Assembly: GCA_031425235.1 (NCBI GenBank)
Contig: JANPIZ010000003.1
Coordinates: forward strand, 1 to 62,445
Direction: 5' to 3'
DNA from: Candidatus Nomurabacteria bacterium
GTDB lineage: Bacteria; Patescibacteriota; Minisyncoccia; Phycocordibacterales; UBA9973
Length of the DNA: 62,445 bases
This document shows positions 396 through 62,301 of the stretch, one piece after another. Under the pieces are notes generated by a model. The model worked only from the letters and a program-made list of their open reading frames with translations, did no database searches and was not told the DNA's origin. Every line of letters starts with the position of its first letter. Within the stretch, counting starts at the first letter, position 1. The position numbers and the translations under genes were made by a program.

Positions 396-1950
<1,555 letters not shown>

Positions 1951-19802: not shown

Positions 19803-19831
19803 TTGCCAAAATTCACTACCGGGTATATACT
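19803..19831 (+). promoter_or_regulatory. Sigma-70-type promoter for the riboswitch transcript
   Basis: TTGCCA, 17-nt spacer, TATACT. Confidence 0.5.
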
Positions 19832-19852
19832 ATATTAGTTCATTGGAAAATT

Positions 19853-19960
19853 TAGAGAATTGATTGGGGAAACTGGTTAGATTCCAGTACAGTGCCGCTA
19901 CGGTAAGTCCCGATACGCTCACAAGCATATCGAGGAACAAGTCCGAATACCAATCATTTG
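19853..19960 (+). promoter_or_regulatory. Cobalamin (B12) riboswitch aptamer
   Basis: GGGGAAACTGGTTAGATTCCAGTACAGTGCCGCTACGGTAAG core plus a B12-box-like AAGTCCGAATACC. The P1 stem pairs tgattgg with ccaatca. Confidence 0.8.
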
Positions 19961-20017
19961 ATGTGTTTATTTAGTCCCGAGCAGGATAGGTTCTCATTTT
20001 TTTGAGGCCCTTATAAA

Positions 20018-20579: not shown

Positions 20580-22421
20580 ATGCAACATATCAAAAAATTT
20601 ATTACAAATATAACCGGAACTTCTTTAATGCTAGTAATGCTCTTTGGAGCAAGCCATTTAGCTCGAGCGGAAGAACCAGAAAATCCTGAACCAGAGCCAA
20701 CAATAGTAGGGTTAACAGTACGAAGTGGTGAAACTATCATCTTTAACGATGAAGTTGCCTTGCAGGCTGCAGGAACTATCGATATCGATGGACATGATGT
20801 TGACGCCCATAGCGTGCTTTCTCTGCTACGTGACGCTGACACGAGCGATGATAGCTGGGACATAACAGATTTGCAATATTTTGATTCATTTGGTGCATTT
20901 TATTTAAAATGCCTAGAAAGCTCTGTCGGTGAAAATTGCGACAACTGGCAATACGCAGTCGATGGTTCATACTCTTTTTCGAGTATTGATCAATATATCT
21001 TACATGGTGGAGAAAATGTATATATTTACTTTGGACCACAAAATAAAATCACCTTGAGTTCAAATTCTATCACTACAAATGGTAGTGTCACCTTGACTAC
21101 CCAAAATTACGACTATAAAAACAATGATTGGGTAGTTCGTAGTGGGGTAACTGCGGGAGTAACCCAACCAGACCCAAATGACCCATTTACTCCTATAGAA
21201 ATAACAACAACTGAAGTGGACGGAAACGGACAAGCAGTATTTAGCAACCTAGCTACTGGATCTTACAATCTTGGAATTAAAGAAGATTTTTATTTTCCTA
21301 CCGAACCACTTACAGTAACTACAGCCTCAAATGGTGGTGGGGGTGGAAGTAGGACCACAACCACAAAAGACGCAAAAGTTCTTGGGGCCACAACAAAAGC
21401 CGAGTTTAACTTAGAAAAAGCTTTCGATTTCCTTATTTCACAACAAAAAGAGAATGGTTCATTTGGGGAAGAAATTTACACTGACTGGGCAGGCATAGCT
21501 TTAGCAACAGGCGCTCGCCAAGAACAAACTATAAAATTGGTTAAATACCTAGTAACTACAAAAACTGCAGGTACCCTTCTCACTGATTATGAGAGACACG
21601 CCATGACTCTCCTTTCTCTCGGACTCAATCCTTATAACACAAACGGTGAAAACTATATTGGAAAAATAGTAGCCAGGTTCGATGGAAAACAATTTGGAGA
21701 TGCAAACGAAGATAATGATGACATCTTTGCACTCATAGTATTACAAAATGCAGGATACAAAACAAATGAAAAAATACTTACCGACAGTGTTGAATTTGTT
21801 CTAGGAAGGCAAAAAGAAAATGGTTCCTGGGATGAAAGTGTGGACATGACTGGCGCAGGAATGGCGGCGCTGTCCCCTTTTAATCAAAATGAAAAAGTAA
21901 GCGTTGCGATAGGAAAAGCAAAAGAATTCTTGAAGCAAAGCCAGAAAGAAACTGGTGGCTGGGCTAATGTATCGGCTACCGCCTGGGCTATCCAAGGCAT
22001 ATTAGCACTCAAAGAAAATCCAGTTGATTGGAAAAAAGGTGACAATACACCATTTGATTATTTCGCTACAAATCAAGATACTGACGGAGGAATAAAAAAT
22101 GAGAACCTGCAAAGTAAACTTTGGGAAACCGCATACACCATAACAGCTTACTCAGGAAAAACATGGAACGAACTCATGCAAACATACGAAAAACCACAAA
22201 ATGCTTCGGTGCTCGGAGCGTCGACAGAAGTTAAAACACAAACCACTATTGTTCCAGTTAAAAAAATAGCGATAAAACCCAAAATAGCTATTGCGAAAGA
22301 TATAAATCTCGACGCACCAGTAGCCCCTATCCCAATGGAAACTCCCGAAGCTCCAGCCGTAGCGCCTCAAGAACAAAGTTGGATCAAGAAATTATTTAGG
22401 AGCATCTGGAGTGCTTTATAG
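20580..22421 (+). CDS. Secreted protein with prenyltransferase/terpene-cyclase-like alpha/alpha-toroid repeats
   Basis: Signal peptide plus repeated Q-x-x-x-G-(S/G)-(F/W) units (SQQKENGSFG, GRQKENGSWDE, QKETGGWA, NQDTDGGI). Confidence 0.6.
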   Translation: MQHIKKFITNITGTSLMLVMLFGASHLARAEEPENPEPEPTIVGLTVRSGETIIFNDEVALQAAGTIDIDGHDVDAHSVLSLLRDADTSDDSWDITDLQYFDSFGAFYLKCLESSVGENCDNWQYAVDGSYSFSSIDQYILHGGENVYIYFGPQNKITLSSNSITTNGSVTLTTQNYDYKNNDWVVRSGVTAGVTQPDPNDPFTPIEITTTEVDGNGQAVFSNLATGSYNLGIKEDFYFPTEPLTVTTASNGGGGGSRTTTTKDAKVLGATTKAEFNLEKAFDFLISQQKENGSFGEEIYTDWAGIALATGARQEQTIKLVKYLVTTKTAGTLLTDYERHAMTLLSLGLNPYNTNGENYIGKIVARFDGKQFGDANEDNDDIFALIVLQNAGYKTNEKILTDSVEFVLGRQKENGSWDESVDMTGAGMAALSPFNQNEKVSVAIGKAKEFLKQSQKETGGWANVSATAWAIQGILALKENPVDWKKGDNTPFDYFATNQDTDGGIKNENLQSKLWETAYTITAYSGKTWNELMQTYEKPQNASVLGASTEVKTQTTIVPVKKIAIKPKIAIAKDINLDAPVAPIPMETPEAPAVAPQEQSWIKKLFRSIWSAL

Positions 22422-38119: not shown

Positions 38120-38142
38120 TCAGTCACCTGACTTAGCATATG
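38120..38142. repeat. 23-bp exact direct repeat, left copy (candidate att site)
   Basis: tcagtcacctgacttagcatatg is identical to 51895-51917. It contains the imperfect palindrome TCAGTCA-CC-TGACTTA. Confidence 0.85.
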
Positions 38143-38911: not shown

Positions 38912-40186
38912 TTAGGGCTTTTCAGGTGGTGTCTCATTCTTGGGGACATCAACCCATTTAAGCTGATCCATGATCTTGTAATCTTTCACCTTTTCTCTAG
39001 CTCCAGCAAACCTATACCAAGGAAAGATGGAACGATTTTCTTTACCGTCTATTATTTCCACACCCTGTTGTGATTCGGTAAGTTTCTTAGGAGGCAAGAT
39101 ATCTTTGTTGTCTTCAAGCATAAAAATCTGACAATGTTCACCCTTACCGTAACGAGTAATAATTCTGGGTTTAATAATCCCTTTTCTTACCCACTTGTAA
39201 AAAGTAGGACCCTTAATATTAAATCTGCTTTCAATATCATATTTTGAATACCAGCTATCTTCGTCTTTTGCGACAGATGCAGGTATTTCTCCTTCATCAA
39301 TAGCTTTCTGGCAGACCAGACATTTGATGCCCCATTCGTCATACCAATTATCGCCTTCGGGAGTACCGTCGCCACATATAGCACAGCGATAACCCGCACC
39401 TTCAAGATGGAATCCTTTCGGATTTGCTTTTAGTTTTTCTGCACGAGCTTTATCCTTTTCTTTCATCTCGTCTACAAATTTTCCAAGTTGTTCCAATCTC
39501 CATTTTTCTTCCTGCCATTTTTTACCAGCTTCTTCTGTCAGACAAAAACGATCTCTATCTTCTGCAAATTTTTCATCAAACTCTTCCTCGTGTGCGGAAG
39601 TTTTTTCTATCTCACTCTTTTTAACATATCCGCATTCTGAATTTGTGCAGATATATTCTGTAATAAATTTTTCTTTAGTACTTGCATCCTTGCAATCAAG
39701 TTTTCCTTTGCAATTCGGACAAGGGTTCGGTTTCGATCTCCATTCTTCACCGTCTGAGAAAAATGCTCTTCTTGGTAGGCACTGATTAGGACAATCGTAC
39801 ATAAAAAACATTCTGTCTTCTTTTCCTTCTTCGGACCATAGATTTTTGAATGTTGGTTTTAGAAGATTGCGACAGGTTAGACAGCGTATATTTTCTGGTG
39901 CTTGTACTGTTTCATACAATTCGTCTTTTCTTTGGTCAGCATCCATCCATTTTTGGATTGTTTCCTCTTTATTTAAATATCTTTCGCCTGTTTGAAACAT
40001 CATACTCCAATCAAGAGCCATTTTTGACATAGCGTCAAGCATTTTCTGTGTTGGTTTTTTACCCTCAATCAATGGAGGATTTTTGATTGGCTCTGAATGA
40101 AGGCGTTCTAGGTCTCGGCATCGTTCAACGGTATGGCGGTCGTAGAGATCGATGTAATGTTGCTTGTCTTTAAGATGCTTTTCCAT
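38912..40186 (-). CDS. Hypothetical multi-zinc-ribbon protein with a C-terminal excisionase-like HTH
   Basis: CxxC pairs: CLTCRN, CPNQC, CPNCKGKLDC, CTNSECG, CAICGDG...CLVCQ. C-terminal FYKWVRKGIIKP. Confidence 0.5.
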   Translation of the reverse strand: MEKHLKDKQHYIDLYDRHTVERCRDLERLHSEPIKNPPLIEGKKPTQKMLDAMSKMALDWSMMFQTGERYLNKEETIQKWMDADQRKDELYETVQAPENIRCLTCRNLLKPTFKNLWSEEGKEDRMFFMYDCPNQCLPRRAFFSDGEEWRSKPNPCPNCKGKLDCKDASTKEKFITEYICTNSECGYVKKSEIEKTSAHEEEFDEKFAEDRDRFCLTEEAGKKWQEEKWRLEQLGKFVDEMKEKDKARAEKLKANPKGFHLEGAGYRCAICGDGTPEGDNWYDEWGIKCLVCQKAIDEGEIPASVAKDEDSWYSKYDIESRFNIKGPTFYKWVRKGIIKPRIITRYGKGEHCQIFMLEDNKDILPPKKLTESQQGVEIIDGKENRSIFPWYRFAGAREKVKDYKIMDQLKWVDVPKNETPPEKP

Positions 40187-40651: not shown

Positions 40652-41977
40652 ATGTCAGAAAAAATACAAATTGTGCATGTATCTGTTAGTGAGTTGCGAG
40701 CTTCTGAATATAATCCTCGTAAGTGGGATAAAGAAGCAGAGAGTCAGTTGAAAGAAAGTATTAAAAGGTTTGGGATAGTCGATCCGTTGCTTGTGAACTC
40801 AGCGGAAGAAAGAAAAAATATTGTTATCGGTGGGCATTTCAGATTGTCGGTGATAAAAGAGTTAGATATAGAAGAAGTTCCCGTTGTATATATTAACATT
40901 CCCGACATTGAAAAAGAAAAAGAGTTGAACATCAGACTTAATAAAAACACTGGAGAATTTGATTGGGACATCCTCAAAACATTCGACGAAACATTCTTGT
41001 CAGATATTGGTTTTACTTCCGAGGATATCGATAGCATCTTTGAAGAAGATAAAGTCGAGGAGCAATTCGATCTAAACAAAGAGCTAGCGAAATTAAACAT
41101 CGAAAAGATCACTGTCGAAAAGGGCGATGTGTATGATTTAGATGGTTCACGAATTATGTGTGGCGATAGTACAGTAGAAGCAGATATGTTGAAGCTATGC
41201 GGTGAACATAAAATAGACATGGTCATGACTGACCCGCCTTATATTTTGGACTATCTCCATGGAAAAAGTCGCCAAGGCAAAGCGACTGAGGGATTTGGTG
41301 CGAAGAAAAATCGTCGCTACCTTGAAACAGATATCTTGCCTGATAATTTTACAGAATTATGGATGGCAAATGTCCATAAAGTACAAGCCGATAACTTTTC
41401 CATTATTTGCTACGAGAACTGGAAGAACATCAGAATTATCTGGAACGAGATGGATAAATATTGGAAAGTGAAGAATATGCTCGTGTGGCATTTAGCCAAT
41501 CGAAACCAAGGATATGCGGGTAAGCATAAATTCTTTTCCAAATATGATATCGCCATGGTAGCAACCAGTAACCCACATGACGGTTTAAAGACTGAGCCAG
41601 AAGAAGAACTACTTGAGAATGAATACAACACCGCTTTGTTTGCTATCTCTGGTTCTCCGCAATGGGAAAGCTATGGCAAAGGCAAGAAGTACTGTCCCAC
41701 TGACCACATAGAGCATTTAGCGGCTGACGAAAAATCCTCAGGTCAAGCAATTATCTTCGGTACTAAACCACTTGAAATATTGATCCCATATATCAAAGTT
41801 CTAACTACTAGGGATCAACTCGTTCTTGAGCCATTTGGTGGGTCAGGTTCAACCTTGATTGCATCCATAAAGCTAAAACGTCGATGCTTTATTATGGAAA
41901 AATCTCCTGTTTATACAGAAGTTATTCTTAATCGTTGGGAGAAATTTACTGGTAAGAAAAGAGTTAAGTTATCTTAA
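40652..41977 (+). CDS. ParB-like nuclease domain fused to an N6/N4 DNA methyltransferase
   Basis: N-terminal ...YNPRKWDKEAESQLKESIKRFGIVDPLLVN...GGHFR (ParB/Srx fold), then MTDPPY and EPFGGSGSTLIA motifs. Confidence 0.85.
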   Translation: MSEKIQIVHVSVSELRASEYNPRKWDKEAESQLKESIKRFGIVDPLLVNSAEERKNIVIGGHFRLSVIKELDIEEVPVVYINIPDIEKEKELNIRLNKNTGEFDWDILKTFDETFLSDIGFTSEDIDSIFEEDKVEEQFDLNKELAKLNIEKITVEKGDVYDLDGSRIMCGDSTVEADMLKLCGEHKIDMVMTDPPYILDYLHGKSRQGKATEGFGAKKNRRYLETDILPDNFTELWMANVHKVQADNFSIICYENWKNIRIIWNEMDKYWKVKNMLVWHLANRNQGYAGKHKFFSKYDIAMVATSNPHDGLKTEPEEELLENEYNTALFAISGSPQWESYGKGKKYCPTDHIEHLAADEKSSGQAIIFGTKPLEILIPYIKVLTTRDQLVLEPFGGSGSTLIASIKLKRRCFIMEKSPVYTEVILNRWEKFTGKKRVKLS

Positions 41978-42523
41978 ATGAAGCATAATTATGAAAAATC
42001 AAAATTTCTTGAGGCTCTTCGTGAGTCTCCAGTTGTCGCGCGCGCCGCCAAAAAGGCAGGTATTTCCAAAGCCACCATTTACCGATGGATGAAGGATGTA
42101 CCTGACTTTAGGCGTGCAGTTAATTCGGCAATAAGAGAAGGCAATGCACATACTGGCGAAATGGTAGAGATGGTATTGGTAAAGAGAGCAATGGAGGGAA
42201 ATTTCAACGCAATGAAATTTTACTTAATTAACAACAATCCTAAATATGCCCCTAAGCGTACGATTGACCCCACTCCAATCTTCGTGCATAAACATGATGA
42301 TGAGTCAGAACCTTGCCAACTTTGTATTCGTGTAGAAGTTGAGCAACGATTTAAGAATAAAGTAATGCTACGAGAAATAAATCAAGAGATTGAAAGATTA
42401 GCAAATCCAAAAACAGAAGCGGATAGAAAGGAAGCCAAAGAATTTATGGACAAGGTTCTGGAAATGAGTAAAGAACAACGAAGGAGAGAGCAAGTAGATA
42501 AAGGGCTTGAAAGTATTATTTGA
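41978..42523 (+). CDS. HTH DNA-binding protein (phage terminase-small-subunit-like / homeodomain-like)
   Basis: VARAAKKAGISKATIYRWMKDVPDFRRAV. Its start abuts the methyltransferase stop. Confidence 0.55.
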   Translation: MKHNYEKSKFLEALRESPVVARAAKKAGISKATIYRWMKDVPDFRRAVNSAIREGNAHTGEMVEMVLVKRAMEGNFNAMKFYLINNNPKYAPKRTIDPTPIFVHKHDDESEPCQLCIRVEVEQRFKNKVMLREINQEIERLANPKTEADRKEAKEFMDKVLEMSKEQRRREQVDKGLESII

Positions 42524-43049
42524 TTTCAAAATCCCAATTGTCTTCGTATTCCTCAGCGAGGGGTGTCTTTATGTTATATTTTTCGCTCTTTAATCCTACA
42601 CGAAAGTTTCTCATAGTAACTGTCTTTACTTTTTTAGCTTCTTTCTTTTTTTCCTCGTGCCAGAATTTATTCTCTAGTGTTAGATAGTCTGCAACAACCC
42701 GTGCAGGGATTATGTAGAATTTGAATTGCTTGGTGTTTTGGCTTATGTTTACGAAACAATAAAATAAGTTAGCATCTTTTTTCTCGTCATACTTTTCATT
42801 CTTTTCATCTAATATCCAAGAGCTTAAGTAGTTTCCAAAAAGTTTTGATTTAACGATTTCTATGCGATTACTATAATTAGTTTTCACTTCCAACTTTAAC
42901 ATCCTGCCTGTATCTGGATCGGACACCAAGATATCGACTCCTTTTGTATTACCAAGAGTCATGTTTGCGTCTTTCCCACGCAAGGCTAGTTGTGATAGGA
43001 CTGCGAATTCTCCTGCGAGGGATACTCGTGATTTATTTATTTTTTCCAT
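42516..43049 (-). CDS. PD-(D/E)xK-type nuclease-fold protein (DUF4365-like)
   Basis: GEFAVLSQLALRG ... GVDILVSD ... LKLEVKT (D...ExK arrangement). Convergent with, and overlapping by 8 nt, the HTH gene. Confidence 0.5.
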   Translation of the reverse strand: MEKINKSRVSLAGEFAVLSQLALRGKDANMTLGNTKGVDILVSDPDTGRMLKLEVKTNYSNRIEIVKSKLFGNYLSSWILDEKNEKYDEKKDANLFYCFVNISQNTKQFKFYIIPARVVADYLTLENKFWHEEKKKEAKKVKTVTMRNFRVGLKSEKYNIKTPLAEEYEDNWDFEIK

Positions 43050-43145
43050 AGATTGTAGCGAGTTTTTAAAGTCTCAGTCAGATAGACAAAGAGCCCTCCG
43101 CCCGAGCGATGATCCGAAGACCATCCATACCAGTTTCCCGATATG

Positions 43146-43192
43146 ACTCGCTACAAGTACCCTGACGAAGGGTTCTTTATCTTGTAGCGAGT
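43146..43192. other. 12-bp stem hairpin; the arm sequence recurs at 43053-43066
   Basis: actcgctacaag ... cttgtagcgagt. ttgtagcgagtttt is also found directly upstream of the 42516-43049 start. Confidence 0.6.
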
Positions 43193-43334
43193 TTTATGAC
43201 CATATCCTTAGAGATTCTAAAGGGGTTAGGTCTCAACTTATTAATTTGTAATGAGATTATACCTCCTTTTTAGAGGCTTTGCCATACTACCTTAGATCAT
43301 GTGGGTTGTGTAGTCGAGTTACCAACAGGCGGTA

Positions 43335-43904
43335 TTAGTAAAAACTAACCCCGCTTTTCTTTAAACTGTTTCTAATCTCTAAGTAATCAGGCATTATTTT
43401 GGCAACTAAATTCCAAAATTTCCTTGAATGATTAAATTCTTTTAAATGGCATAGTTCGTGGACGATAATATAGTCAGCCAATCTTGGGGGCAATAAAGCT
43501 ATTTTATAATTAAAGTTTAAATTACCTTTTCTTGAACAACTACCCCAACGAGTTTTTTGATTCTTTATATTTATTTTATTAAATTTAAAACCACAAATTT
43601 GATTGTAATATTCAATACGTTGCTGGGCTAGGAACAATGCTCGATCTTTGTATTCCATGTATTCTTTTTTAGTGCTTTTCTTAAATACTTGTCCTGAAAT
43701 ACTTTTAAAGTATGCCATTTGATCAATAACCCATTGTGATTTTCGTATAATAAATTGCTCAATAATGTTATTAGTGATATTCCGTGGTGCTGTTACTATA
43801 AAATTTCCATCACAATAGATCGCAAGTCTCATTCGTTTTGCACGTTTGCTAATCTTAAGAGTGTAATCAATTTTCTGTTTATGAAGTTCTATATGTTTTT
43901 TCAT
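43335..43904 (-). CDS. YgjP/DUF45-family zinc metallopeptidase
   Basis: RWGSCSRKGNLNFNYKIALLPPRLADYIIVHELCHLKEFNH. Starts 2 nt after the hsdR stop. Confidence 0.8.
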   Translation of the reverse strand: MKKHIELHKQKIDYTLKISKRAKRMRLAIYCDGNFIVTAPRNITNNIIEQFIIRKSQWVIDQMAYFKSISGQVFKKSTKKEYMEYKDRALFLAQQRIEYYNQICGFKFNKINIKNQKTRWGSCSRKGNLNFNYKIALLPPRLADYIIVHELCHLKEFNHSRKFWNLVAKIMPDYLEIRNSLKKSGVSFY

Positions 43905-43906
43905 AC

Positions 43907-46819
43907 TTAGAATTTTTTAATTACCACATCAATAAGACGGTTGAGATATTTGTGGAAATCAGAAATCTTAATTTTATTCTTATAGTCTTTTAAAATAAGC
44001 TCTTGCAAGGTACGCTTTGCCTCCTTAATAAATTCTTCTCTTTTAGAAGAATCTTGCCATCCTTCGTCTAGGACATTTTCTAAACGTGAGGTCATTTCTT
44101 TAATGAATTCTTTTACAACATCTTTATCAGATTCGGTTAAAAATTCTTCTGAAATTACATAGAGGCCATATTCATGGAGTGTGTAGCCAAGTTCTTTTGC
44201 TTCTTCTGTCTTTGTCTTAATATCGTTAAGGAGTTCGTAATATCTTTTAATGCGTTCAGCAAGGTCAATTTGATGCTTCTCAAACTCTGCTCGGATAGCA
44301 ATCAATCGCTCCCCAAACCCCTTAAATGCTGGATGTGTATCAATGTTTATTGATATCTCACGCTTCAGCATTTTCTCAAGATTTAGTGCTTTTTCTTCTT
44401 CTGGAAGTTTATCTAGTTTATTTAGTGTCGCTAGATCATGAATATTTAACTCTCTGAAATTCTTGGTTATACCCTCATAGTCAATTTTGTCTTGAATAAG
44501 ACTTTTTATTTTTACACCATATTCAGCGAGTGAAAAAGCATCAATCCCTTCAGCTTGGAATTCCTTACTAAATGCAAGATAAAAACTAGTAACCCATTCA
44601 AACTTTCTAAGGTAATCAATCAAGAATGGATCAGGAGAAAGGATTTCAAATAACATCTTAAGGCGACCGTATTTATCTTTAAAGAATTGCTGTTTACTTT
44701 GATTATCAATAAATATTTTCAAGCATCTACGCAGATTATCGATTGAGGGATCTTCAATATTAACTCCCTCAAAAAGACTCATAACTTCGCTAAGTACTGT
44801 TATAAAGTCTTGTTTTAGTCGATCAATATTAATCATTGCACTATCGACAACACTTTCATCAAAATTGAGAGCATCGTACAGATTTTTAGTTACGCCATAG
44901 TAGTCGATAATCTTTCCACACCCTTTGTTCGGATATACTCGGTTTGTACGAGCAATAGCCTGAAGGAGATTGTGGTCTCTTAGTGGTTTGTCTAAATACA
45001 TAACTTGTTCAACTGGTGCATCAAAACCAGTTAAAAGCATATCGCAAACGAGCAGAAACTTTAGAGGGTGGTTGGGGTCTTTGAATTGTTCAATAACTTT
45101 CTCTCTTTTTTGTTTATTTGTATTATATTTTTTAAGGTCATCACTTTCACTATTAGGATCACCAGGAGAATAGACTACCTCTGACCATTCAGGCGGTACA
45201 AGTTTATCAAGTAAATCTTTATACTTTGCTGTTGCTTCTCGGTCATAGCAGACAATTTGTGCCTTGAAACCATTTGGAAGCACATAAAGCTTGTAATGTT
45301 CAACAATGTCTTGAATTACAGCTTCCATACGCTTGTCGAGTTTTACTAGTGCTTCTTTCTTTCCATATTTTTTAGTTAGAACTTCTTTTTGGGCAGTATT
45401 TAGATCATTTGTTAACTCATTAAATTGTTTGTCTACCTGTTCTTCGTCAATAAAAAACTTAGATAGTCGTGCCTCATAAGTTACTGGGAGAGTGGCACCG
45501 TCATCTATAGCTTGTTGAATAGAATAGTAATCTAAATATCTTTCACCATCTTCTCCGAAGTTTCTATGAGTATTAAGGGTTAACTTGTCGATCGGTGTTC
45601 CTGTGAATCCAAAGAAGAAAGCATCTCTGAATGCATTACGCATCTTGATAGCAGAAATTCCTTCATTATCTCGATGAGCTTCATCAGATAAAACTATGAC
45701 GTTACCTTCGATTTCTTCTATTTCTTCAAGCTCGCTGAATTTCTGAATAGTGGATATGAAGATACCTCTGTCTGCACCTTTAATCTTTTTCTCAAGGTCT
45801 TTGCGAGATTCAACACGAATCAAATTTTGTCCACCCCATGCGTCAAACTCTTCAAAAACTTGATCATCAAGATCAATGCGATCTATTAGAATAAATACTT
45901 TAGGATTTTTAAGTTCAGGATCGTAGCGAAGTTTCCACGCAGTAAAAAACATTGTAAGTGTTTTTCCAGATCCTTGTGTGTGCCAGATGAGTCCTTTTTT
46001 ATGATCACCACCCTTTACTCTATCAACCATCTTATTAGTAGCGTAAAATTGCTGATATCTAGTGATCTTTTTTGTGATACCGTCTTTTTTCTTTTCAAAT
46101 ACAATAAAGTTTTTGATGATATCAAGTAATTGTTCTTTACTTAATAGATAATGCAGAGTTGAATCTAGCTCATTTTCAAACAGTTTAGTTTCGATATGCG
46201 GATCTTCTCGCCAAGTAAGGAAATATTGTTTGGGAGCAAATGTAGTTCCATAAACAGTTTTAAGTCCATCGGTTGCAATATTGAAACAATTAGTCAGAAA
46301 CAACTTGGGTGCAACTCTTTCGTATCGCTTGATTTGATCGATAGCATTTTCAAAATTAACAGAACTAGAGGCAGTTGGGCTTTTTGCTTCAATATCGGAT
46401 ACAGGTAATCCATTAAGAAATACCAATACATCAGTTCTAATGTTTTCAGTAACTCCTTCAAAATAAAATTGATTAGTGATAACGAAGCGATTGTTCTCAT
46501 GATTATCAAAGTCCACTAGCTTATAATCACGACTTTTGCCAGTTTCTGGATCTTTTATATTTACTCCATTTCGTAATGCTAAAAGGAAAGCTTCATTGGT
46601 ATCAAGTTTCTTTACTTCTCGAACAATAGTCGAAGCGACATCTTCATTCACTTTGTTTATTGTTTGAACTGCCTCTAGTAAATGAGGGACAATGATATAT
46701 TCATTTTCAAATGAACGAAGTTTGGAAAATGCTTCAGCGGTAATATACTCATATCCAAGCTTTCCTTGCATGAATTTTATAATGTGATTTTCAATTGTGT
46801 ATTGTTCGTTGAATTTCAT
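43907..46819 (-). CDS. hsdR: Type I restriction enzyme R subunit
   Basis: 970 aa with helicase motif I (HTQGSGKTLTMFF), motif II (VLSDEAHR) and an HsdR-type N-terminal nuclease region. Confidence 0.9.
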   Translation of the reverse strand: MKFNEQYTIENHIIKFMQGKLGYEYITAEAFSKLRSFENEYIIVPHLLEAVQTINKVNEDVASTIVREVKKLDTNEAFLLALRNGVNIKDPETGKSRDYKLVDFDNHENNRFVITNQFYFEGVTENIRTDVLVFLNGLPVSDIEAKSPTASSSVNFENAIDQIKRYERVAPKLFLTNCFNIATDGLKTVYGTTFAPKQYFLTWREDPHIETKLFENELDSTLHYLLSKEQLLDIIKNFIVFEKKKDGITKKITRYQQFYATNKMVDRVKGGDHKKGLIWHTQGSGKTLTMFFTAWKLRYDPELKNPKVFILIDRIDLDDQVFEEFDAWGGQNLIRVESRKDLEKKIKGADRGIFISTIQKFSELEEIEEIEGNVIVLSDEAHRDNEGISAIKMRNAFRDAFFFGFTGTPIDKLTLNTHRNFGEDGERYLDYYSIQQAIDDGATLPVTYEARLSKFFIDEEQVDKQFNELTNDLNTAQKEVLTKKYGKKEALVKLDKRMEAVIQDIVEHYKLYVLPNGFKAQIVCYDREATAKYKDLLDKLVPPEWSEVVYSPGDPNSESDDLKKYNTNKQKREKVIEQFKDPNHPLKFLLVCDMLLTGFDAPVEQVMYLDKPLRDHNLLQAIARTNRVYPNKGCGKIIDYYGVTKNLYDALNFDESVVDSAMINIDRLKQDFITVLSEVMSLFEGVNIEDPSIDNLRRCLKIFIDNQSKQQFFKDKYGRLKMLFEILSPDPFLIDYLRKFEWVTSFYLAFSKEFQAEGIDAFSLAEYGVKIKSLIQDKIDYEGITKNFRELNIHDLATLNKLDKLPEEEKALNLEKMLKREISINIDTHPAFKGFGERLIAIRAEFEKHQIDLAERIKRYYELLNDIKTKTEEAKELGYTLHEYGLYVISEEFLTESDKDVVKEFIKEMTSRLENVLDEGWQDSSKREEFIKEAKRTLQELILKDYKNKIKISDFHKYLNRLIDVVIKKF

Positions 46820-46820
46820 A

Positions 46821-48095
46821 TTATTTCTTTGATGTCTTTTTCTTCTTGGCTTTATCCTTCTTTTTTGTAAACTGATTTAAAAGTATTTTTGCTTTTACTA
46901 GTACTTCGTCAAAACATATTATTTCTATATTTCTAAGATTCTGTCTAAATAAATCGAAATTTTTTCTTGAGTCCTTGGGGATATCACCAATCTTTCCAGC
47001 AACAATAATACATCTCGGTTCAAATACTTCGAAATCGCCCGTAGCCACATTTGAGTAATTTCTTAAAAGAGTATGTTTTTGATCAAGCACTTGGTTAATT
47101 GCACCAGAAATACCAGAAGAAATTGGATATATTTTCCCAGCTTTTCTGTATGCAGTTTTATGTAAAAGTGGTGCTTTATGAGTTTTAATCTCTATAATCG
47201 TGGCATTGTCAGTTAAATTATTTTTATAAATAAAGTCAGCATATCGTGCCCCCTTATCATTGCCTTTTTGACCACCAACATAGTATTCATCTTGAAATAA
47301 AAAATGAGGAGCGGCGAAAAGATAGGAGAATATCCAAGAGTTATCTTTAAAGAATTTATGCCATTCTCCCTCGAGATTTTTACCAGTCTTTTTTGATAGA
47401 ATTTTTTCAAATTGAGCAAGCACTTTATCAATATAGACTTGATCTATTTTTTCCTTGGTTCGAATTAATGCAACAGCATTCATGTCATAGTTTTGAATTT
47501 GATTTTGAGTAAAATCTAAAATTGAGGCAGAATCATTGTCTGATAGTTTTGCTCCAGAAGATTTAACTTCTTGTAAAATTCCCTTAATTGTCCCAGATAC
47601 ATACGGAATCTTTTGAGATTTAAGCTTAAGCTCTTTAGAATCAGCTAAAAGGTTATTAATTGTTATTTTTAGATCTTTAGAGTGTGTAAGATTCTTAGGT
47701 CTGAGAGTGCTATAGATTTTTTTATAATCATCATCATTCAAAATAAACTCTCCCTTTTTAAGCTTAAGACTTGTTAGTTTTTTAGAAATAACAATTTTTG
47801 TAACTTGAGGAAATTTATCGTTAACAACTGAAAGGAGAGAGGAGGTGTCATAGGTAAAACCGTAACCACGAGTCATTGCTCTTAGGCCTTTTAAGTCAGC
47901 ACGAGCGACTCCATCAAAATGAATTTCTGAAATGAGAGTATATTTTTGCTTACCAAATCGGTCAAATGGATAAACAATCTCATAAAGTTTTTTCTTAAAG
48001 ACTTCTCTCGATTTAACCTCGAAATCAGCCTCAGTGTTTTTTGCAAAGTAAATCTCTTTTGTTTTTAAGTTTTCTTTGATAATTTCAGTAGTCAT
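46821..48095 (-). CDS. DUF4263 (Shedu SduA-like) PD-(D/E)xK nuclease with an unrecognised ~240-aa N-terminal domain
   Basis: C-terminal half: WHKFFKDNSWIF...GARYADFIY...ATIIEIKTHKAPLL...GAINQVLDQ...PRCIIVAGK...NIEIICFDEVL. Sits 1 nt from the hsdR start and 7 nt from the hsdMS stop. Confidence 0.7.
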   Translation of the reverse strand: MTTEIIKENLKTKEIYFAKNTEADFEVKSREVFKKKLYEIVYPFDRFGKQKYTLISEIHFDGVARADLKGLRAMTRGYGFTYDTSSLLSVVNDKFPQVTKIVISKKLTSLKLKKGEFILNDDDYKKIYSTLRPKNLTHSKDLKITINNLLADSKELKLKSQKIPYVSGTIKGILQEVKSSGAKLSDNDSASILDFTQNQIQNYDMNAVALIRTKEKIDQVYIDKVLAQFEKILSKKTGKNLEGEWHKFFKDNSWIFSYLFAAPHFLFQDEYYVGGQKGNDKGARYADFIYKNNLTDNATIIEIKTHKAPLLHKTAYRKAGKIYPISSGISGAINQVLDQKHTLLRNYSNVATGDFEVFEPRCIIVAGKIGDIPKDSRKNFDLFRQNLRNIEIICFDEVLVKAKILLNQFTKKKDKAKKKKTSKK

Positions 48096-48102
48096 GTAAC
48101 TA

Positions 48103-50373
48103 TTATTTTTTAGTCATAATATCTTGCATCAGTGCTTTTTTCAGAGTCTCAGCCTTTTGAGTAATATCTTTAATATTTTTTAAATAAGAATCCATTGTAG
48201 AAAATAGCCTAGCTATATCTTTCTGTTCTTTTAGAGGCGGAATTGAGATGGGCATAGAGTATATGATAGGCAATCGAAGAGATTTTACAGTACTTCCAAC
48301 AGCATTATCTGCGAAGAAATTTCTGTTAGCAAAAATAAAATAAAAAAGATACAAAGGGTCTACATCTTTATTTTTTGTGGAAATTGCGTAAGCTCGTTGA
48401 TGTAAATCAAACTTACCACTGTAATAGCGAGGGATAAATTCTGCCCCTTCTCCAGGTAATATTATGGCTGTTTTATCAAACAAATATTTATTACTTCTTT
48501 TTATTATTATAGATCTATCAAAAAGAGGATATTCTCCATTATCCACAGCGTCTTGAGAATTAGTTTTTCCATTTTTTATGTCAGCAATTTCTCCAAGAGT
48601 TGTCTTTGTCCATCCCTTTCTATTAGTTAAATCTACCAATATGTCGTTAAATACTTCCCAATTATTTTTTAAGGCATTTGTATATAAATTTTCTGATTTA
48701 TTTAAGTCTTTCTTTGACTGTGAAATATCAAGAATTTGATCTTCAATGTCTGAACTAATATAAAGTTTTGTCTTTAGGATGTAGTCTTTGTCTTTAATTT
48801 CAGTAAGGTGAACTACTTTTGCATAATTTGCTTTGTCGGTATAAGTATCATACGTTTTAATAATTTTCTGTATGTCTTGGGTTCTTAATGAGTTTTGATT
48901 TTTTCCTTCAGAAAAATCTTTTTCTGCATCAATTATTAATATTTTTCCTTTATGATTTTCTGGTTTATTTGTATTTAAAATAAGAATAACCGCTGGAATT
49001 GTTGTTCCATAGAAAAGTTTTGATGGGAGTGCGATGACTGCATCAATTAAATCATTTTTTAGAATCTGTTCACGAATACGACCTTCGGCACCCCCACGAA
49101 ACAACACACCGTGCGGAAGTACTATTCCAGCTCTTCCATTCTGATTCATCGATTTAATAATATGAAGTACAAAAGCATAGTCTGCATTTTTATCTGGCGG
49201 AGCATCATATCCTTCAAGGCGACCAAACTTTGTTTTGAATGCTTCATATTCCCAGTCTTTTATTGAGTAAGGTGGGTTAGCTACTACTATGTCAAAAGTT
49301 TGTAAATTCCCTTGTTGATTAAGAAATTGAGGATTTGCGAGCGTGTCACCTCTACGGATATCAGCGCTATCGAGTCCATGAAGAAACATGTTAATTTTTG
49401 CAATCGCAAAAGTAGCAAGATTCTGTTCTTGTCCATAAAGATAAAGTGTCTTTGCAATTTTTTCTCCAGACTTTTGTTTAAGATAATCATAAGCTTCTAA
49501 AAGAAAACCGCCTGATCCAACAGTAGGGTCGTAGATATGATCTTTCTGATGGGGTTTAAGAATCCCCATGATAACTCTTTCAACTTCTCGAGGAGTATAA
49601 AACTCGCCACCTTTCTTACCCGCATCGGCTGCGAATTGTTTTATAAGATATTCATATGCATCACCCAATAAGTCTGAACTAATATAAGTATTACCGAAAT
49701 TGTATTGTGAAAAGTGGTTAATAAGACGTTGAAGTGTTTCGTTGGGAAAACGATCTTTATTGGCGAAATCAAGATCTTCAAAAATCTTATCGAGTTTGGG
49801 ACTATTTGCATTTGCTAACTTATCAAAAATATCATTTAGCTTCTGTCCGATGTTTTCAGCTTGTTCAGTAATCTTTTCCCATCGACAATCTTTTGGTATC
49901 TGAAAACGGTGATTGTAGTCAGCACGAGCAATCGTTACATCGTTATATTCTTTCATGACGGTATTGTATTCTTCATCCCACACGTCACTCATTCGTTTAT
50001 AGAACAAAAGACCAAAAATATATTTTTTATAATCAGAGCTGTCAATTTTCCCTCGGAGAATGTCAGCACTCTTCCAAAGGAATGATTCAAGTTGGGGTAG
50101 AGTGAGCTTACTACCCATTTTATCGACGATAGCTTCTATGTCTTGAGGGCGATATTTACGATCACCTCGCTTCCCAGCTCGAAGTGGCACAAGAGTACCG
50201 TCCTTTTCCCAGTTGCGGAGAGTGTCTGGGTGAATGGAGAAAATATCTGCTACTTGGCTGATAGAGAGTAGTTCTGGCATTCCTTTAAGTTTTGCTTGTA
50301 TATCTTTCCTCATTTGTATAAATAGGAGTCTATCAGACTCTAAATACAAAGTCAAGTGTTCATAGGTTTTCAT
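48103..50373 (-). CDS. hsdM: Fusion of an excisionase/MerR-type HTH, type I N6-adenine methyltransferase (HsdM) and a single-TRD half HsdS
   Basis: LSISQVADIFSIHPDTLRNWEKDG (HTH). FYTPREV, DPTVGSGGFL and VANPPYS (methylase). C-terminal TRD plus the conserved LPPLKEQKDIARLFSTMD helix (HsdS). Confidence 0.85.
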   Translation of the reverse strand: MKTYEHLTLYLESDRLLFIQMRKDIQAKLKGMPELLSISQVADIFSIHPDTLRNWEKDGTLVPLRAGKRGDRKYRPQDIEAIVDKMGSKLTLPQLESFLWKSADILRGKIDSSDYKKYIFGLLFYKRMSDVWDEEYNTVMKEYNDVTIARADYNHRFQIPKDCRWEKITEQAENIGQKLNDIFDKLANANSPKLDKIFEDLDFANKDRFPNETLQRLINHFSQYNFGNTYISSDLLGDAYEYLIKQFAADAGKKGGEFYTPREVERVIMGILKPHQKDHIYDPTVGSGGFLLEAYDYLKQKSGEKIAKTLYLYGQEQNLATFAIAKINMFLHGLDSADIRRGDTLANPQFLNQQGNLQTFDIVVANPPYSIKDWEYEAFKTKFGRLEGYDAPPDKNADYAFVLHIIKSMNQNGRAGIVLPHGVLFRGGAEGRIREQILKNDLIDAVIALPSKLFYGTTIPAVILILNTNKPENHKGKILIIDAEKDFSEGKNQNSLRTQDIQKIIKTYDTYTDKANYAKVVHLTEIKDKDYILKTKLYISSDIEDQILDISQSKKDLNKSENLYTNALKNNWEVFNDILVDLTNRKGWTKTTLGEIADIKNGKTNSQDAVDNGEYPLFDRSIIIKRSNKYLFDKTAIILPGEGAEFIPRYYSGKFDLHQRAYAISTKNKDVDPLYLFYFIFANRNFFADNAVGSTVKSLRLPIIYSMPISIPPLKEQKDIARLFSTMDSYLKNIKDITQKAETLKKALMQDIMTKK

Positions 50374-50503
50374 AGGTCTGCATACTAACTCACCTTGTAA
50401 AATAAGGGTAATTAGTTATCAACAAATGCATCCTAGACTCCTAAGAGCCGTTGCGTCATTCCTTAGGTGTAGGTCAATTATCAACCAAACACAAGGAATA
50501 TAT

Positions 50504-51799
50504 ATGAAACATAAGCAAGTAGAGCAAGCCCCCACGGCACCCCTTAAATACTGTCTGTATTCTAGGAAATCCACAGAGGCTGAGGATAAGCAGGCTCTCT
50601 CAATAGAATCTCAGGTAAAGGAGATGCAAGCTCTAGCAGAGCGAGACCATCTCCATATAGTAGAGATAAAGCGAGAGGCACACTCGTCGAAAGAAGTTGG
50701 GCAAAGACCTGTATACAATGAAATGCTAGCAGAGATCAAACAAGGCAAGTTCAACGCCATCCTTACTTGGGCACCTGACAGATTAAGTAGAAATGCAGGA
50801 GACTTAGGGTCAGTGGTGGATTTGATGGATCAGGGAAAGTTAATTGAGATAAAAACATATGGGCAGAAATTTACAAACAATCCAAACGAGAAGTTCCTCC
50901 TGATGATTCTAGGATCACAAGCGAAACTGGAGAATGATAATAAGGCAGTGAATGTACAGCGAGGTCTACGAACAAGGTGCGAGATGGGATGGAGACCAGG
51001 AGTTGCACCGACTGGCTACCTGAATGAAAAGCATGTAGATAAAAAGTGCCAATGCAGGATTGATCCAAAACGAGCACCAGTTATTAAGCAGATGTTTGAG
51101 AAAGTCGCATCTGAACAATGGAGTGGAAGAAAAGTATATCGATGGCTAAGAGAAATTAATTTCAAAACGCATAGAGGAAAGCCATTAGTGTTAGCAAATA
51201 TTTATATCATCTTAAGAAATCCATTTTATTATGGTGACTTTGAATATCCAAAAGGTGGCGGTCAATGGTATACAGGAAAGCAGACACCGATTATAGATAA
51301 AACACTTTACGATAGAGTGCAGATGACTCTTAATCAGAATTATATTCCCAAAACTGAGAGTAAAGAATTCGCATTTACTAAACTCATACACTGTGGCTAC
51401 TGCGGATCAGGCATATCGGCTGATGAGAAATTTAAGAAACTTAAAGATGGTGGAGTGAATCGCCATGTCTACTATTTCTGTACGAAAGCAAGGAACATAG
51501 ACTGCAAAAATCCAGCTATCAATGAGCCAAACTTAATAACAGAACTTATTGAATTGATGGATAAGGTAGACTTAGATGAGCTTGGAATTAAAACAAGAAT
51601 CGAGGATGAGATAAGTAGGTTTAATAAATTTAGAACTGGAGTATTAGGGCATAAGCAAGAAAAAGTATCACTGGATATAGATGTCCGAAACTACACGAAG
51701 TACTTACTCAAAGATGGAACACTAATGGAGAAAAGAGAACTACTATCTTGTATGAAAAGTAAACTAATTATAAAAGAAAAGAAAGTCTGTTTCGCATAA
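50504..51799 (+). CDS. Large serine recombinase
   Basis: YCLYSRKSTEAEDKQALSIESQ (catalytic Ser region), DRLSRN, a recombinase domain and a CGYCGSG...YYFC zinc ribbon. ATG at 50504 preferred over 50426. Confidence 0.85.
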   Translation: MKHKQVEQAPTAPLKYCLYSRKSTEAEDKQALSIESQVKEMQALAERDHLHIVEIKREAHSSKEVGQRPVYNEMLAEIKQGKFNAILTWAPDRLSRNAGDLGSVVDLMDQGKLIEIKTYGQKFTNNPNEKFLLMILGSQAKLENDNKAVNVQRGLRTRCEMGWRPGVAPTGYLNEKHVDKKCQCRIDPKRAPVIKQMFEKVASEQWSGRKVYRWLREINFKTHRGKPLVLANIYIILRNPFYYGDFEYPKGGGQWYTGKQTPIIDKTLYDRVQMTLNQNYIPKTESKEFAFTKLIHCGYCGSGISADEKFKKLKDGGVNRHVYYFCTKARNIDCKNPAINEPNLITELIELMDKVDLDELGIKTRIEDEISRFNKFRTGVLGHKQEKVSLDIDVRNYTKYLLKDGTLMEKRELLSCMKSKLIIKEKKVCFA

Positions 51800-51894: not shown

Positions 51895-51917
51895 TCAGTC
51901 ACCTGACTTAGCATATG
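51895..51917. repeat. 23-bp exact direct repeat, right copy (candidate att site), 4 nt from the tRNA-Gln 3' end
   Basis: Identical to 38120-38142. Flanking similarity extends to about 38110-38150 and 51885-51927, with indels. Confidence 0.85.
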
Positions 51918-51921
51918 ACGG

Positions 51922-51992
51922 CTGGGAGACTAGGACTCGAACCTAGATAACGTCCTCCAGAGGGACGTGTCCTACCATTAGACGATCTCCCA
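51922..51992 (-). tRNA. tRNA-Gln (anticodon CUG)
   Basis: Folds by hand into a cloverleaf: acceptor tgggaga/tctccca, anticodon stem cgtcc/ggacg with loop ctCTGga, T arm ctagg-ttcgagt-cctag. No encoded CCA. Confidence 0.9.

Positions 51993-62228: not shown

Positions 62229-62229
<1 letters not shown>
61570..62229 (+). CDS. Hypothetical protein with an ACT-domain-like C-terminus
   Basis: ATG at 61570 preferred over the TTG at 61522. The C-terminal ...INLEELISTPTELIFIVAEKDFGKTVALF resembles ACT folds. Weak call. Confidence 0.35.

Positions 62230-62301
<72 letters not shown>

Follow-up and report, generated by a model that had tools for sequence, protein, structure and literature searches.

Characterized Shedu proteins act as single genes, and 602 of 5,499 Shedu genes lie within restriction-modification (R-M) systems, type I among them (Gu et al., bioRxiv 10.1101/2023.08.10.552793). 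Genes embedded in defense systems are co-oriented with the host system in 96.7% of cases, and many of them are known defenses, a pattern termed "guilt-by-embedding" (Payne et al., bioRxiv 10.1101/2024.01.29.577857). In Vibrio cholerae, TgvAB in the VPI-2 type I operon protects alone, without the R-M genes, 10- to 100-fold less than the full cluster against several phages. With regard to type I specificity, an EcoKI M-S fusion is functional (PMC3510504), the half-HsdS enzyme EcoR124I_NT recognizes a symmetric site (PMC3320862), and an engineered HsdM-half-HsdS fusion supplied with HsdR carries out both restriction (efficiency of plating, 0.10) and modification (Bower et al. 2018, PMC6158711). 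We analyzed a 62,445-nucleotide stretch of a Candidatus Nomurabacteria genome ("the window"; contig JANPIZ010000003.1 of assembly GCA_031425235.1, phylum Patescibacteriota) in which a four-gene operon combines type I R-M genes with a Shedu gene. Shedu inside R-M operons and defense genes embedded in type I operons are already published, and a single locus adds little to them. Most worth specialist attention here are the natural fusions of HsdM to half of HsdS (M-half-S) and the near-universal occupancy of passenger slots in the cassette family of this operon. We conclude, with a probability of roughly 0.7, that the operon is a mobile Patescibacteria type I cassette, located on an island and carrying passenger defenses, and that its Shedu is an autonomous second-layer nuclease in a hypervariable slot.

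The operon consists of four open reading frames (ORFs), listed here from the upstream end with the evidence for each.

48103..50373, minus strand: gene 1, helix-turn-helix (HTH)-HsdM-half-HsdS fusion (profiles; alignment to the HsdM and HsdS of relatives; junction comparison)
46821..48095, minus strand: gene 2, Shedu nuclease SduA, 424 amino acids (profiles, alignment, predicted structure)
43907..46819, minus strand: gene 3, HsdR, 970 amino acids (Pfam, PADLOC, and NCBIfam profiles)
43335..43904, minus strand: gene 4, YgjP-like (DUF45) HExxH metallopeptidase, 189 amino acids (Pfam; cassette survey)

An earlier, sequence-only reading of this DNA had described four packed minus-strand genes, and re-reading the ORF positions and gaps gave identical values. 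The intergenic gaps are 7, 1, and 2 nucleotides (TAA-tagttac-ATG, TAA-t-ATG, and TAA-gt-ATG). Since the four genes are co-oriented and tightly packed, the arrangement implies a single transcript. Profile searches of the four proteins agreed with every domain assigned by that reading, with matches that are not due to chance. It had also held that there is no separate hsdS, and a search of the whole 62-kb window showed no hsdS-like sequence besides gene 1. By these comparisons the earlier description is accurate, except for the probable start codon of gene 1.

Gene 3 falls in the HsdR family TIGR00348 (NCBIfam; E = 2.8e-166), and its Pfam domains are HSDR_N, SWI2_SNF2/ResIII, T1R_D3-like, and T1RH-like_C. 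It has an N-terminal PD-(D/E)xK nuclease (D...EAK), a superfamily 2 (SF2) motor (GSGKT and DEAH), and a C-terminal helical domain. As expected of a type I system, the HsdM part of gene 1 has an HsdM_N domain and a gamma-class methyltransferase, and HsdR has an N-terminal nuclease and an SF2 translocase. Gene 4 is YgjP-like (Pfam; E = 2.7e-47), with a HELCH motif in its translation. In about 33 of 40 related loci ygjP directly follows hsdR, making it a conserved tail gene.

Gene 2 is, by its C-terminal domain, motifs I to IV, and predicted fold, a Shedu gene (sduA). The DUF4263 pattern reported earlier for the 46821-48095 product was recovered as Pfam SduA_C (PF14082; residues 241-399; E = 5.7e-22), and PADLOC SduA matched residues 72-421 (E = 1.1e-65). 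A profile of the gene 2 family matched Bacillus cereus SduA (PDB 8TI8) with an E value of 8e-63 over profile positions 214-415, and Escherichia coli SduA (8PS4) with an E value of only 7e-9. The 155 full-length homologs found by database search, of about 410 to 440 amino acids, all have PF14082. All catalytic residues of the nuclease are present in gene 2. An alignment of 33 homologs shows no variation at residues E242, D287, E302, K304, Q335, and Q339; in a hidden Markov model alignment, E242, D287, E302/K304, and Q335 align to E204, D249, E264/K266, and Q295 of B. cereus Shedu motifs I to IV. The AlphaFold (AF2) model of gene 2 had a mean predicted local distance difference test score (pLDDT) of 82, with the N-terminal 130 residues above 90, and its nuclease domain matched 8TI9 in Foldseek (E = 4e-12; template modeling score, 0.81 normalized to the target). 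The protein is made up of an N-terminal alpha/beta domain (residues 1-135; nucleotides 47691-48095), a helical linker (residues ~136-235), and the PD-(D/E)xK DUF4263 nuclease (residues ~236-415). This is the layout of B. cereus Shedu (8TI8/8TI9; Gu et al., cited above), with its N-terminal regulatory domain, helical linker, and nuclease.

The difference from B. cereus Shedu lies in the N-terminal domain (NTD; residues 1-135), which is without a sequence or fold match among solved structures or BFVD models and whose subfamily amounts to 168 representative clusters. No PDB chain matched the NTD in sequence, and an AF2 model of residues 1-138 (pLDDT, 85) gave best Foldseek E values of 0.44 in PDB and 0.26 in BFVD. 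The NTD could not be placed in the sPC4/Whirly, NRF1, or NRF2 class of Gu et al.; we did not assign the sPC4/Whirly class, as a match to a phage T5 PC4-like protein (4bg7) was not significant (E = 1.2). When 1.84 billion representative proteins were searched exhaustively with a profile, the NTD turned up in just 168, mostly of about 410 to 440 amino acids or fragments. Among the longer, weaker matches, 10 of 10 checked have a C-terminal SduA_C. Because the search returned Shedu-length proteins and the long matches carry SduA_C, we conclude that the NTD is, as judged by its distribution, a Shedu-restricted sensor or regulatory module that is not shared with R-M proteins.

The HTH-HsdM family to which gene 1 belongs is a very abundant one of Patescibacteria; it has more than 8,000 database matches, many at 82 to 89% identity. 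We surveyed the cassettes of this family at 46 species-level loci and 5 metagenomic loci. Their conserved layout is a divergent serine recombinase, HTH-hsdM, slot 1, hsdS, slot 2, hsdR, and ygjP. At least one co-oriented gene occupies a slot in 42 of the 43 loci that have both hsdM and hsdR. Gene 2 had been said to sit exactly where nothing is expected, but a filled slot is the rule in this family, the occupants being varied and mainly of the defense type. Shedu is the occupant in 1 of the 46 species-level loci. Clustering placed 96 cargo genes in about 47 families. Pfam and PADLOC searches with representatives identified ThsB-TIR with PDC-M50A/B partners; a CBASS-type cyclase with a SLATT effector; AbiEii; an OLD/AriA/AbiL-like ATPase; an AAA_13 ATPase (PDC-S06, with weak PrrC similarity); a GajB-like helicase; PIN, NYN, and KAP NTPase proteins; RhuM; a Bro-N protein (PDC-S13); and DUF4145.

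Cargo families of this cassette match PADLOC PDC families whose definition was based on embedding, the guilt-by-embedding pattern of Payne et al. As with PrrC in EcoprrI, TgvAB, BrxU in BREX, and Shedu in R-M systems (Gu et al.), the modification/specificity genes are separated from the restriction gene by a co-oriented gene. This cassette differs from those cases in that embedding is near universal within one Patescibacteria family (42/43), with two slots, on a serine-recombinase island. Several cargo families (for example, of 450, 282, 279, and 217 amino acids) had no Pfam match; of 10 families also scanned with PADLOC, 2 were without a match, namely, the 450-amino-acid protein at L093 and a 276-amino-acid protein at L094 that has a SEC-C motif only. 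An abundant cassette with two fixed passenger slots offers a compact hunting ground for new defense genes in an under-studied, uncultured phylum. Candidate undescribed defense genes lie in the slots of L069-L119, e.g., at L093:4710-6062, L109:13644-14492, L096:13808-14647, L091:6375-7028, and L094:3974-4804. Many contigs with the cassette are titled "uncultured Gammaproteobacteria/Pseudomonadales bacterium" (L004, L076, L077, L080, L081, L085, and others); either these titles cannot be trusted or the cassette moves between phyla.

We then located relatives of gene 2 at 68 loci from species-representative genomes. Type I genes were the sole strongly recurrent kind of neighbor (HsdR at 15 loci, HsdS at 14, HsdM at 13, and YgjP at 6), and they were present at 15 to 16 of the 68 loci. 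At least 52 of the 68 were without type I genes, in heterogeneous neighborhoods. Shedu is mostly outside such operons, unlike PrrC. The statement that Shedu is normally stand-alone holds for its genetics and is overstated for its location, given the R-M-associated fraction reported by Gu et al. In a neighbor-joining tree, the embedded genes fell into at least five separate clades, interleaved with nonembedded ones. The adjacent HsdR proteins were 66 to 72% identical to that of the window in its own clade and 26 to 34% identical in the other clades. The own clade holds six relatives (L001-L004, L120, and L123) in the order hsdS-sduA-hsdR(-ygjP). To that extent the gene order of the window recurs; the fused first gene does not recur in this clade, as all six relatives have a separate hsdM (560 to 607 amino acids) and a full hsdS (368 to 428 amino acids) with two target recognition domains (TRDs). 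The closest homolog, P0002 (74% identity), occurs on six contigs within a small element that encodes a serine recombinase as well as a Rep protein and lacks R-M genes. It lies at L121 5755-7017 and L122 3924-5186, and the element has a Rep of the REP_ORF2-G2P/RepSA kind and many small ORFs and adjoins ribosomal protein L33 and trmD. As a genomic proxy only, the location of the nearest homolog and of about three-quarters of the subfamily outside R-M operons is consistent with autonomy of this Shedu.

Two features at the upstream end of the operon were recognized by comparison with related loci.

50359..50377, minus strand: tandem repeat ACCTATGAA-A-ACCTATGAA, directly upstream of the -35 hexamer (invariant columns in six hsdM upstream regions)
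50327..50355, minus strand: probable operon promoter, with -35 TTGACT at 50355-50350, a 17-nucleotide spacer, and -10 TAGACT at 50332-50327 (consensus scan and alignment)

The six aligned hsdM upstream regions have, in order, the tandem repeat, an invariant -35 hexamer TTGAC(T), a 17-nucleotide spacer, a -10 hexamer TAGAnT, and the ATG of M21. The hexamers and their 17-nucleotide spacing are conserved among these loci, whereas the spacer sequence varies. L123 retains the hexamers and spacing even though a stop interrupts its upstream frame. M21 is the first invariant residue, and many HsdM family members are called at 560 amino acids. Because the hexamers and spacing are kept, the upstream frame of L123 is interrupted, and invariance begins at M21, we place the true start of gene 1, with moderate confidence, at 50313 (the ATG of M21), giving 736 amino acids rather than the listed 756. 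The earlier account of gene 1 as three modules in one polypeptide is upheld; its start codon is not, the first 20 listed codons being probably promoter rather than coding sequence. A consensus scan of the operon for promoters and terminators performed at shuffle expectation (25 versus 28.9 expected and 4 versus 3.6, respectively), making it uninformative alone and useful only when combined with the cross-locus alignment. It gave no minus-strand terminator-like site inside the operon; the one such match in the listed span of gene 1, at 50340-50326, falls on the proposed promoter, upstream of M21.

The HTH of HsdM may act on the tandem ACCTATGAA repeat, a candidate operator. The HTH-fused regulatory methyltransferases SsoII, Ecl18kI, and EcoRII (reviewed in PMC12707154) likewise have an N-terminal HTH on the methyltransferase and a conserved repeat at their own promoter. 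Those enzymes are type II C5-cytosine methyltransferases, whereas in the window a MerR/excisionase-type HTH is attached to a type I HsdM, with an operator and repression that we infer.

Taken together, the varied cargo of the slot, the R-M-free closest homolog, the 52 or more of 68 loci without type I genes, and the Shedu-only NTD point to Shedu as an autonomous, cotranscribed layer of defense. In the scheme we propose, the promoter upstream of hsdM would drive all four genes, and the N-terminal HTH of HsdM would probably autoregulate it via the invariant tandem repeat. Two HsdM-half-HsdS copies would dimerize via the HsdS helix to form an M2(half-S)2 methyltransferase with a symmetric bipartite site, which together with HsdR would restrict unmethylated DNA. 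SduA would form its own homo-oligomer, as B. cereus Shedu does. The Shedu-specific NTD may keep it latent until an infection-associated nucleic-acid cue appears, whereupon SduA would cut DNA, giving a second, independent layer of defense against phages that get past restriction. What would then connect SduA with the R-M enzyme is common transcription and common mobility rather than membership of one complex. The sequence-only reading had suggested a composite system with Shedu physically or regulatorily coupled to the R-M complex; of this, cotranscription and comobility are retained, and portability, varied cargo, and the Shedu-only NTD argue against the coupling itself. A constant scaffold with swappable passengers amounts to a natural experiment on whether embedding gives synergy or only coregulation and cotransfer.

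Several observations weigh against this conclusion. Across the cassettes of its own clade, whose identity has dropped to 63 to 74%, Shedu has kept its place between hsdS and hsdR, as would also be expected of a selected partnership. About 23% of the subfamily is in type I operons, compared with about 11% reported for Shedu in R-M systems of all types, so a specific affinity is possible. The neighbor survey was made by homology to the proteins of the window and by clustering, and very divergent R-M genes, or ones past contig ends, may be missed in its counts. As for regulation, the promoter, the operator, and the M21 start were all drawn from conservation alone, and the -10 hexamer is just 13 nucleotides from the M21 ATG, which would give a nearly leaderless mRNA.

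A functional partnership could take the form of a relay in which HsdR cuts of unmethylated phage DNA give free ends that Shedu senses and processes, such that the pair exceeds the sum of its parts with no complex between them. Shedu is directly upstream of hsdR in four of the independent embedded clades, and the greater protection given by the full V. cholerae type I cluster than by its embedded genes alone is consistent with such a relay. However, the nuclease domain is near B. cereus SduA and distant from E. coli SduA (E values given above), and the NTD has no detectable similarity to solved structures, the E. coli end-clamp among them. Most relatives lack an R-M neighbor. Moreover, DNA ends have no bearing on the RNases, TIR proteins, and cyclases that the same slot houses. 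We therefore consider a relay unlikely. We also think it improbable that Shedu is functionally wired to the type I enzyme in some broader sense, with either HsdR-made DNA ends as the trigger or a guard function against anti-restriction proteins, so that the operon would be a two-stage composite defense and its minimal M-half-S core a natural, living example of the intermediate that has been proposed between type I and type IIG enzymes.

The structure of gene 1 bears on the state of the R-M system itself. Its Pfam domains are MerR_1/HTH_17 (residues 35-85), HsdM_N (95-221), N6_Mtase (232-542; E = 1.4e-106), and a single Methylase_S (586-742; E = 1.7e-21), and the protein scores above the NCBIfam cut-off of the hsdM equivalog TIGR00497. 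It is a gamma-class N6-adenine methyltransferase with motif I (DPTVGSGGFL) and motif IV (NPPYS) intact. Its C-terminal part consists of one TRD and one conserved HsdS helix. A type I HsdS has two TRDs and two conserved regions, whereas here a lone Methylase_S domain is fused to HsdM. Gene 1 is also unlike a type IIG or IIB enzyme, in that it lacks a nuclease domain and HsdR is encoded as its own 970-amino-acid protein. Over residues 1-557 the identity to the stand-alone HsdM proteins of relatives is about 80%; residues 586-756 align to the second half (residues 206-377) of a relative's 381-amino-acid HsdS. Because the Shedu-bearing relatives all have separate hsdM and full hsdS genes, the M-half-S fusion is, on this comparison, not linked to Shedu.

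Eight other loci, from different species, have an HsdM of 754 to 802 amino acids and no separate hsdS. Each of these proteins joins a complete HsdM, C-terminal helix included, to a single TRD plus the conserved HsdS helix, with differing TRDs. We therefore rejected the idea that the fusion is a one-off deletion in this genome; it is plausibly functional. Binding of a symmetric bipartite site by a dimer of M-half-S, as inferred earlier, is reasonable because engineered half-HsdS and M-half-S enzymes support it. The engineered "M1/2Sfus" and half-HsdS proteins and gene 1 alike join the HsdM C terminus to one TRD and one conserved helix, with HsdR separate, and the expected target in both is a symmetric bipartite site recognized by a dimer. 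The fusion in the window differs in being natural, in having an extra N-terminal HTH, and in occurring at nine or more loci with different TRDs. Natural HsdM-half-HsdS fusions with a separate HsdR match an architecture that laboratory work had constructed to represent a hypothetical intermediate in evolution.

These observations make it very improbable that the R-M system is a relic, with the fusion a deletion scar that abolishes specificity and Shedu the sole working defense. The single TRD of the window, set beside the separate hsdM and full two-TRD hsdS of the six Shedu-bearing relatives, would fit such decay. Yet the four ORFs are intact, as are the catalytic motifs of HsdM (DPTVGSGGFL and NPPYS) and HsdR (GSGKT, DEAH, and D...EAK), the same architecture recurs with different TRDs at the eight loci from other species, and the engineered counterparts are active. 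Least probable of all is a PrrC-like guard, the composite idea of the earlier reading, in which SduA would be held latent on the HsdM-S/HsdR complex and freed when a phage anti-restriction protein inhibits that complex: gene 2 does share the genetic position of prrC in EcoprrI, inside the hsd operon, AAA_13 ATPases with weak PrrC similarity occupy the same slot in sister cassettes, and Shedu is stable at this position within its clade, but PrrC is almost exclusively embedded (Payne et al.) whereas about three-quarters of this Shedu subfamily is not (15 to 16 of 68 embedded), the nearest homolog is on an R-M-free element, embedding occurs beside very different type I families (HsdR 26 to 34% identical) while the NTD stays homologous and confined to Shedu proteins, characterized Shedu proteins function as single genes, and Pfam and PADLOC searches of gene 2 gave no ATPase and no PrrC match, so that the ABC-ATPase N-domain and anticodon-nuclease C-domain of PrrC are absent.

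The preferred reading, a mobile cassette with an autonomous Shedu passenger, also draws on the surroundings of the operon, where we identified the following features.

50426..51799, plus strand: large serine recombinase, divergent from the operon; beside hsdM in most related cassettes (profiles; cassette survey)
51895..51917: right copy of a 23-bp exact direct repeat, TCAGTCACCTGACTTAGCATATG, a candidate attachment (att) site 2 nucleotides from the 3' end of tRNA-Gln (repeat search)
51920-51992: tRNA-Gln, adjoining the recombinase gene
38120..38142: left copy of the 23-bp direct repeat TCAGTCACCTGACTTAGCATATG, followed by a tRNA-3'-like stretch; candidate other end of the island (repeat search)
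40652-42523, plus strand: ParB_N-N6_N4 DNA methyltransferase fusion, then a small-terminase-like HTH protein, converging on the operon (profiles)
42516-43049, minus strand: 177-amino-acid ORF between the LOOT RNA and the small-terminase-like gene (PHROG 26985, function unknown)
43108..43232, minus strand: LOOT RNA (Rfam RF03000), ~100 nucleotides past the ygjP stop (77 bits; E = 8.7e-13)

The exact 23-bp repeat (E = 2e-7) bounds a candidate island of about 13.8 kb. The G+C content of the operon is 0.29 to 0.36, compared with about 0.38 nearby. Because of the tRNA-Gln gene, the serine recombinase, the direct repeats, and the lower regional G+C content, the operon appears to be on a ~13.8-kb integrative island beside tRNA-Gln, with the repeats as candidate att sites. 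In addition to the operon, the island holds a 424-amino-acid unknown protein, the ParB-N6_N4 methyltransferase, the small-terminase-like HTH protein (PHROG match, E = 5e-11), and the 177-amino-acid ORF. The same methyltransferase/small-terminase-like pair, with a large terminase, flanks the sister cassettes L071, L120, L123, and L174. On the island of the window, the small-terminase-like gene is present and no large terminase or capsid genes were found. The region could not be called a prophage, as PHROGs on the genes to the left of the island gave almost nothing. A sister cassette was found on a single IMG/VR contig. The 424-amino-acid ORF (38912-40186, minus strand), rich in CxxC pairs, had no match in Pfam, NCBIfam, PADLOC, or PHROG. 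The 177-amino-acid ORF had no Pfam match; it sits where sister elements have the large terminase, and by eye it contains a D...E-V-K pattern (DILVSD...LKLEVKT), making it a putative small PD-(D/E)xK nuclease.

The LOOT RNA may form the 3' end of the transcription unit, or it may be a small RNA of its own. We found it in about 10 related candidate phyla radiation (CPR) loci (L079 9722-9852, L120 13400-13516, L003 13890-14009, L020, L083, L089, L095, L082, L006, and L010); in several sister cassettes it lies 0.1 to 3.5 kb downstream of ygjP. An integral role in the cassette was rejected, since 27 loci with ygjP and sufficient sequence beyond it lack the RNA, and since the RNA also occurs near two CPR Shedu genes outside type I operons. 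It seems to be associated with these mobile elements of Patescibacteria. A literature search on LOOT RNA found nothing informative. A chromosomal gene at 20580-22421 shares 50 to 65% identity with genes of Candidatus Nomurabacteria/Paceibacterota metagenome-assembled genomes, placing the host close to these groups. Elsewhere in the window, and unrelated to the operon, Rfam and ARAGORN identified a complete 16S rRNA gene (396-1950, minus strand), a cobalamin riboswitch (19818-19972, plus strand), and a tRNA-Thr gene (62229-62301, minus strand).

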